Program-made: the position numbers and the translations under genes
Origin: Hydrolagus colliei
Lineage: Eukaryota
Length of the DNA stretch: 64,000 nt
Direction: 5' to 3'
Assembly: GCA_035084275.1 (NCBI GenBank)
Contig: CM068745.1
Span: 47,616,001 to 47,680,000, forward strand
Part shown: in pieces, positions 19,425-20,706 of the stretch
Numbering within the stretch: the first letter of the stretch is position 1
Layout of the letters: each line of letters opens with the position of its first letter
The notes under the pieces: model-generated
Databases searched by the model: none
What the model was told of the DNA's origin: nothing
The model's input: only the letters and a program-made list of their open reading frames with translations

Positions 19425-19572
19425 AGCCAAATTACTGTAGTCCTGGAAATCTGAAATAAAAACAGGTATCTGTTCTGATGAAAGTTCATCAACCTCAAAT
19501 GTTAACTCACTTTCTTCTCATAGATGCTGCCTGATATGCAGAGTGTTTCCAGTAACTTTTATTTTTATTTCT
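19425..19572 (+). mobile_element. Penelope-like terminal repeat relic with short inverted end and decayed hammerhead
   Basis: 19430-19462 is the reverse complement of the repeat end seen at about 20665-20698; it is followed by gttctgatgaaagttcatcaacctcaaatgttaact...agatgctgcctga. Confidence 0.65.
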
Positions 19573-20429
19573 AATCCCTACTCCTGCTTCAGTATTGTGC
19601 ATTGTAAATCTCTGGTCTAATATCTACCTTATCTGTGCAACTCATCATTTTAAACGGCTAATACAATATTTTCTTCTACAACATGGGTTCTAGTGAGAAC
19701 CCATTCAGCTCAAAATTTTATTGTCAGCAATGGAATGATGTGAAGGAAAAACCTTTTACTTCTCACTCCTAATCACATTGGTTGGAGGGCAGATGGAAAA
19801 AAACCCAAATTGAAGTGATATTTGTGGAGTTATTGTTTCAATGTTACTGTATTGTACTTCATGGTTCATTGGACAGTCCCAAAACATTTAAAACATTATT
19901 TCAGAACCATAGAAGCACCAAAGGGTTTTCAAAAATGTGTGCAGAACACACATAAAAACACATATACCCTGTGTATTGTGAGAAAATACATTGTTTTTGT
20001 AAAATACTAATCATAAATAGAAATTAATTTAAGGAAAATATAACAAAGCTATTTGAACATGCAATGACAAGCATACCAGAGTTCTTACAAAACTTCGATA
20101 AATATAATATTAACACAATGGAGATCCCCGGGTTATTAGAGGATTCTCTAATGTTTGACAACTGAAACAGCAGTACTGTACTGTAATCCAAGTAGAAATA
20201 GAAAGTGAGCAGAAATCCCCCCCCAAATTAAAATGTTACAAGACTACCAAGAAATCAAGTATCTGATCATAAAAAATAAAATGAAAACATTCACATACCT
20301 GGAAGAAAGACTAGCTTCAAGCAAGGAACAATGAAAGATACATGAATATTATACATGTACAGTATTATAAGAAAGAGTTGTATGAAAAAGTAATTGATTT
20401 TTTTGTGACTAGCATAATAAGTAATTGCA

Positions 20430-20706
20430 ACCCCGCTTTTGTTTTTCTACCATTAACACCTCTTTAGCCCATTATCTCCTGTCCTGTACCACATTTTCTC
20501 CTTTGTCTCCCTTGCCCTGCCTGCATCCTCTGTGTTATTCATTAAAAGCCTCTACCCCCCAACATGCCCTAGTTCTGCTGAAGGGTCATGGATCCAAAAC
20601 GTTGTCTGACTTTCCTTTCTCCATAGATGGTGCCTGACCTACTGAGTGTTCCCATCGATTTCCGTTTTTGTTTCAGACTTCCATCATCTGCAGTACTTTA
20701 CATTCT
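20430..20706 (+). mobile_element. Penelope-like terminal repeat with decayed hammerhead
   Basis: Pyrimidine-rich leader, then agttctgctgaagggtcatggatccaaaacgttgtct...atagatggtgcctgacctactgagtg...tttcagacttccatcatctgcagtac. Confidence 0.7.

Follow-up and report, generated by a model that had tools for sequence, protein, structure and literature searches.

The window, 64,000 nucleotides (nt) of the Hydrolagus colliei genome (GCA_035084275.1, contig CM068745.1, positions 47,616,001 to 47,680,000), contains three short, damaged motifs that resemble minimal hammerhead ribozymes. An earlier note had traced them to Penelope-type repeats and had suggested that the three together reconstruct an intact core. 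This raises the question of which element left the motifs behind, whether any of them could still cleave RNA, and what the other copies of the same repeat tell about the place of the ribozyme in the life of the element.

The window motifs were compared base by base with the majority sequence of their family, numbered with C3 of the ribozyme as position 0 (Table 1). Motifs A, B and C align without gaps over 37 nt, at the places and with the identical spacing described in the earlier note, and the window copies belong to one repeat family (blastn E values of 1e-8 to 1e-24). Of the 37 places, 11 in copy A and 6 in copy B depart from the family majority; the two copies lie on the same strand, 1.1 kb apart. 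Copy C lacks C3-U4-G5 and keeps an intact substrate half (AACGUU/GACU). That each motif is broken at a different position is right for C but not for A and B, which share the loss of G12. Because these catalytic bases are lost, copies A, B and C are predicted to be catalytically dead. Complementation in cis between A and B was considered and rejected: since both lack G12, neither catalytic half works and the two cannot complement each other. Two further pieces, absent from the earlier note, are copy D and an inverted arm beside copy A, which forms a typical inverted insertion of a Penelope-like element (PLE). A scan for bacterial promoters and terminators found nothing; its models are bacterial and irrelevant to this genome.

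Table 1. Fragments of the pseudo-LTR (pLTR) in the window, with positions counted from the first letter of the window
Feature	Position	Strand	Remarks
Copy A, short pLTR fragment, family -3 to +99	19472..19571	+	Starts at the family 5' hot spot; 78% identity with the majority
Copy A, hammerhead remnant	19472..19507	+	CUGAUGA retained; changes G12>C, G10.1>A and, in the palindrome, C15.2>U; stem II disrupted
Inverted arm with the element's 3' tail	19429..19465	-	Head-to-head with copy A, directly 5' of it
Copy B, longer pLTR fragment, about -149 to +124, extending into the tail	20433..20699	+	
TATA-like TTAAAAG, putative promoter element	20542..20548	+	First T 29 nt 5' of the A opening stem I; suggested by spacing only
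Copy B, hammerhead remnant	20571..20607	+	A6>C, G12>A and a mismatch in stem I; the cut would come after 20603
Copy C, 5'-truncated pLTR fragment, +5 to +101	1692..1790	-	96% identity with the majority
Copy D, partial fragment, +23 to +64	36361..36402	+	No hammerhead core remaining

Elsewhere, the window holds a single long host open reading frame (ORF), an 875-aa single-exon frame (45401-48025, minus strand) most like SLITRK2/SLITRK1 (E = 2e-99), in a G+C-rich stretch at 46-50 kb. tRNA-like SINE heads (Rfam tRNA) occur at 17614-17685, 18459-18530, 26429-26494, 38937-39008, 39371-39442, 51751-51809, 56506-56577 and 59409-59478; the abundant SINE has LINE-like tails terminating in short A/T or GTT repeats. 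Remnants of LINE reverse transcriptase (RT) lie at about 21189-22074, 23737-24270 and 32402-32812.

In the 1.0 Gb of genome searched, a 22-mer derived from the repeat occurs 7,210 times, compared to no occurrence of its control; this figure is a lower bound on the number of copies, with the 22-mer matched exactly in only one of the four window copies. Loci sampled by this 22-mer number 84, all within the first 8.7 Mb of a single contig (C1); the sample is biased towards younger copies. Before counting, six overlapping duplicate loci and one edge-cut segment were dropped from loci L142-L231, and the query (L082) and two non-spanning loci from the set selected by the GIY-YIG domain.

The window motifs are pLTR fragments of an old Penelope-like retrotransposon. 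The Penelope-type origin proposed earlier is borne out by longer copies, whose upstream sequence derives from a GIY-YIG endonuclease and a PLE-type RT. One locus (L050) has a broken GIY-YIG end about 270 nt upstream of the motif, and walking upstream along longer copies revealed RT and GIY-YIG endonuclease sequence in 30 further loci. The RT is followed by a C-terminal GIY-YIG endonuclease, the order of endonuclease-bearing (EN+) PLEs. The element protein has 238 homologues at E<=1e-30, the best being a bamboo shark protein with 67% identity, and the decayed ORF pieces score below the curated Pfam cut-offs (RVT_1, 20.8 versus 29.6; GIY-YIG, 20.9 versus 22.6). All copies examined are broken, and no intact ORF of the window family was seen among them. 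A CX4CxxC linker and a CCHH endonuclease can be read in L112 (CQRRRCNTC and YCIRCSRCGLLYIG ... EH ... LHF); a CX2-5CxxC linker with a CCHH endonuclease is given as the Neptune/Nematis pattern in PMC8557442.

The arrangement of the pLTR is also that of a PLE. In L232, an inverted pLTR piece precedes a pLTR that runs on into the ORF, a partial pLTR-ORF-pLTR tandem, and in L234 pLTR sequence flanks the ORF on both sides. Divergent inverted pairs are present in 41 of the 84 loci, and 35 of 44 such pairs consist of one arm with a tail and one without. The 3' ends of the copies are bimodal, with 58 of 137 segments ending at +91..105 and 64 at +124..141; an optional tail of about 35 bp separates the two classes. 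Some elements are internally deleted (L241, L243, L246, L247, L249, L260, L267 and L239), with the 5' part of the element joined directly to the pLTR at -3..-11. These natural, non-autonomous-like derivatives carry two hammerheads on the same strand, separated by 0.2-1.1 kb, a pair that could potentially form a dimer in cis.

The family majority has stem I AGUU, CUGACGA, an extra A, stem II GGGUY/GACCC with a 3-nt loop, GAAA, CG, UU and GACU, and a palindromic AACGUU stands in for stem III, as the earlier note had read it. The family consensus, which that note had named as a check, contains both CUGANGA and GAAA. Its composite of the three copies correctly anticipated the core, stem II and stem I, but not all letters: GACCU and CUGAUGA are mostly CpG-decay forms, and the family has GACCC (C11.1), usually a C at position N7, and AGUU/GACU instead of AGUU/AACU as stem I. 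Patterns of 29 to 35 places that describe the intact motif match exactly 522 times for one subfamily and 1,220 times for both subfamilies with stem I included, whereas the reversed control gives no match. Two samples were picked independently of the motif; in them, 28 of 65 short and 11 of 27 long spanning copies (39/92) have core, stem II and palindrome intact, so that the earlier verdict of "probably dead" fits copies A, B and C but not the family as a whole.

The extra A between A9 and G10.1 is present in 65 of 65 copies. Of the pair features of minimal hammerheads, G10.1-C11.1 is G-C in 61 of 92 copies (G-U in 14), the palindromic 15.2-16.2 pair is C-G in 59 of 92, and stems I and II pair. 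Subfamily changes are one-sided and preserve pairing (C12-G16 in 35 copies versus U12-G16 in 49), and a change of U-G to C-G in stem I of 12 copies is linked to one subfamily (p=0.005). No two-sided compensatory covariation beyond the expectation from decay was found within this one family of one genome. A scan with hammerhead models came back empty: at E<=10, Rfam assigned no hammerhead family to the window, nor to 14 loci that include intact copies.

In ViennaRNA, an intact copy forms the active double-hammerhead dimer with all standard pairs at -14.5 kcal/mol, but the nearest-neighbour model, which omits the tertiary contacts of the core, favours an inactive rod with GACG paired to CGUU, at -10.8 for the monomer and -28.3 for the dimer. 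This modelled preference fits the activities described for related ribozymes: dimers of a PLE hammerhead had low activity in PMC4209133, and a PLE hammerhead was cleaved only with its protein in PMC11167929. By analogy with the published motif class, cleavage after GUU would take place in a dimer.

The genomic copies decay neutrally and by CpG loss, with no sign of selection on them: non-CpG core bases change as often as the flanks (17/585 versus 32/773, p=0.24; 6/234 versus 8/322, p=1.0). The 29-nt core holds four CpG sites, G8 and G12 among them, and these two bases are changed in 19 of 130 cases (p=1e-6), a rate five times faster. At the non-CpG site G10.1 (family +8; L171, L157, L179, L198 and others), changes occur in 14 of 65 short copies and 0 of 27 long ones, which reflects either a defective master lineage or errors close to the template end.

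These data bear on two rival readings. A chance resemblance to the hammerhead could draw on the empty Rfam scan and the lack of two-sided covariation; yet all four PLE minimal-hammerhead diagnostics that can be read from sequence, as listed in PMC4209133, are present in the majority at the expected place in the pLTR, and hundreds to more than a thousand exact matches face none in the reversed control, which leaves coincidence barely credible. It is also extremely improbable that the genomic copies are retained as working host ribozymes, for example with A and B acting together in one transcript. About 40% of sampled copies are indeed intact, and the two window copies are close neighbours on one strand, but the core decays at the rate of its flanks, the shared loss of G12 precludes complementation, and the closest long ORF, the SLITRK-like frame, is on the opposite strand from A and B and terminates at a distance of 25 kb. 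Very probably, the motifs are the decayed pLTR ends of an old PLE with RT and GIY-YIG domains. In the majority sequence of this family the minimal type I hammerhead is intact and likely cut only as a dimer or with the help of protein, and window copies A, B and C are predicted to be dead.

The 5' ends of the copies are concentrated at one place. Among 121 segment starts, 45 fall at -8..0 (5.0 per nt, compared to at most 1.6 in every other bin), and the favoured start lies 3-5 nt before the core, at stem I; identity with the element is at background by -6. Across the genome, 162 intact copies are mismatched at every position from -6 to -4. Taking 0.42 as the chance of three random mismatches, we estimate that such starts would make up roughly 30% of intact copies; the 1,220-match and 162-match patterns compared here differ in their last letters. 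Five long copies start at -2..-7, and in the eight internally deleted copies the upstream part, which breaks off at variable positions, is joined to -3..-11.

Sequence features at this boundary are compatible with a promoter. In the majority, stem I opens with an A that lies 29 nt downstream of TTAAAA, and the CCAGTTC at that A is initiator-like. The base before G(-3) is itself G in 44 of 100 matches listed of the 162 (hand count), compared to 30.5% expected (p=0.003) and to 12 of 51 in control patterns (p=0.02). Of 40 such extra-G cases that were fetched, 22 adjoin plain flank and 18 an inverted arm; in the latter, microhomology with the arm could supply the G. The excess is modest. For L1, an untemplated 5' G has been read as a copied cap (PMC9341517). 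The pile-up at stem I may mark the transcript start, probably of a capped RNA. A literature search for such a 5' boundary or a template switch there brought up nothing pertinent, as judged by titles and the openings of abstracts.

The cleavage site left no comparable footprint. In three matched genome-wide patterns there was no excess of copies starting at +29, the cleavage site (27, compared to 24 at +31 and 21 at +27), and among 137 mapped segments a single start falls exactly on +29, compared to 17 on -3. Because copies span the cleavage site and starts are not in excess there, the templates of inserted copies were likely mostly uncut. The missing cleavage-site ends agree with the in vitro work on uncut RNA templates reported in PMC11167929.

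Two other origins of these ends were weighed. The pile-up could be a splice acceptor, with an intron in the pLTR and the short copies derived from spliced RNA. A pyrimidine tract ending in CAG and a branch-like CTAAC lie upstream, and the intron of the Drosophila virilis PLE (PMC2377424) is described as ending at the 5' end of helix I (PMC4209133). We consider this unlikely: neither the 45 copies, with their background identity, nor 40 more share an exon upstream of -5, and internal junctions arise at variable positions, in L239, L243 and L246 without a GT donor when compared with neighbouring copies. Still less probable is replication through hammerhead-cut and perhaps circularised RNA in the manner of retrozymes, with the insertions recording the cut. 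Such a cycle was tentatively proposed for PLEs in PMC4209133, and 27 copies do start at +29, but the control positions yield like numbers and single segments tell the same, with a lone start at +29. Moreover, copies end at +100 or +134 and not at +28, the junctions of rearranged copies lie at -3..-11, and only three same-strand neighbours within 300 nt were found in the 84 loci. The head-to-tail tandem hammerhead units without an ORF that characterise retrozymes were not found either; the family carries its own ORF.

For the life cycle of the family, we tentatively favour a scheme, plausible though somewhat short of probable, in which the short copies, or stubs, are run-off cDNAs that extend from two internal starts to a capped transcript start at stem I, jumps build the inverted and tandem pLTRs, and inserted templates were never cut. 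The active element would be transcribed from its upstream pLTR into an RNA that begins 3-5 nt before the hammerhead core, at stem I. The RT would then initiate inside this RNA at about +100 or +134, the roughly 35 nt in between being the PLE tail, and would run off the capped 5' end to produce stubs of 100-135 bp. Run-off could be followed by insertion, by folding back into inverted pairs, or by jumps to other places on the template, and inserted copies would decay neutrally, hastened by the CpG sites of the core. A precedent for several of these steps is the Poseidon element PAc of Anolis carolinensis (Frangieh et al. 2024, PMC11167929), for which internal initiation of RT at two sites, uncut RNA as the dominant substrate and a hammerhead that requires protein are described.

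The family shares with PAc, as reported there, the two internal RT starts, a tail of 30-40 bp downstream of the hammerhead, and uncut RNA as template with no cleavage-site ends. It differs from this member of the Poseidon clade in its CX4CxxC linker, and a sharp 5' boundary at stem I with an extra G is not part of the published description of PAc (PMC11167929) as far as it was available. Minimal hammerheads in the pLTRs of metazoan PLEs were described by Cervera and De la Pena in 2014 (PMC4209133). As in that description, the ribozyme is of type I with no real stem III, a palindromic 15.2-16.2, a short stem I, an extra nucleotide between A9 and G10.1 and a G10.1-C11.1 pair, and truncated PLEs are dispersed as thousands of single copies and as inverted pairs. 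Its stem II of 5 bp with a 3-nt loop is unlike that of the Schistosoma ribozymes (7-8 bp; PMC4209133), and cartilaginous fishes are not named among the hosts in the portions of PMC4209133 available to us. With the Neptune/Nematis EN+ PLEs (Craig et al. 2021, PMC8557442, as far as described there), the family has in common the C-terminal GIY-YIG domain with CCHH, the CX2-5CxxC linker, partial tandems, an inverted 5'-truncated copy and a tail; this likeness is one of motif pattern, not of an RT tree, in a family whose copies are all broken. Non-LTR retrozymes also possess a type I hammerhead of PLE origin and, according to the available accounts, have been reported in one cartilaginous fish (bioRxiv 10.64898/2026.07.22.740005; PMC7229834). 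Unlike their head-to-tail tandems without an ORF, the copies studied here stand alone or in inverted arrangement, as stubs of an autonomous element.

The searches also uncovered a second PLE family, whose young copies are 99% identical and form arrays at contig ends (L061-L081, L335, L352 and L353; e.g., L076:3740-7407 and L078:5003-10000). It has an intact 783-aa RT and GIY-YIG frame, an overlapping upstream frame of 485 aa without a Pfam match, and CCCTAA runs 3' of the ORF. GIY-YIG matches number 40, of which 31 are on contigs longer than 3 Mb. All but one of the 31 lie within 160 kb of a contig end, at 15 different ends in total, and these 30 share one polarity, with the element 5' end toward the contig end. 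In L078, a 5'-truncated copy directly adjoins (TTAGGG)331. This polarity is that of telomeric retroelements, here in a vertebrate and with an endonuclease. Titles and abstract openings revealed no literature on point about telomere-associated EN+ PLEs in vertebrates. Kinship with the window family was considered and rejected: the two families show no DNA similarity, their proteins are only 25-40% alike, in pieces, and no hammerhead pattern was found in the telomere-side family.

The window motifs themselves matter little, as the motif class is known and the three copies are predicted to be dead. The finding is of a described kind, minimal hammerheads in Penelope pLTRs, as in PMC4209133, to which the map of copy ends is a modest addition. 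The telomere-polarised second family may matter more. The window family is nevertheless a handy test bed for the in vivo role of the PLE hammerhead, with natural intact copies by the thousand and copy ends that predict one transcript start and two RT start sites. If the run-off scheme is true, the genome would be a fossil map of Penelope reverse transcription, written in thousands of stubs of about 100-135 bp, and the job of the ribozyme would lie elsewhere in the cycle, for example in destroying element RNA or taking it out of use as soon as dimers or protein allow it.
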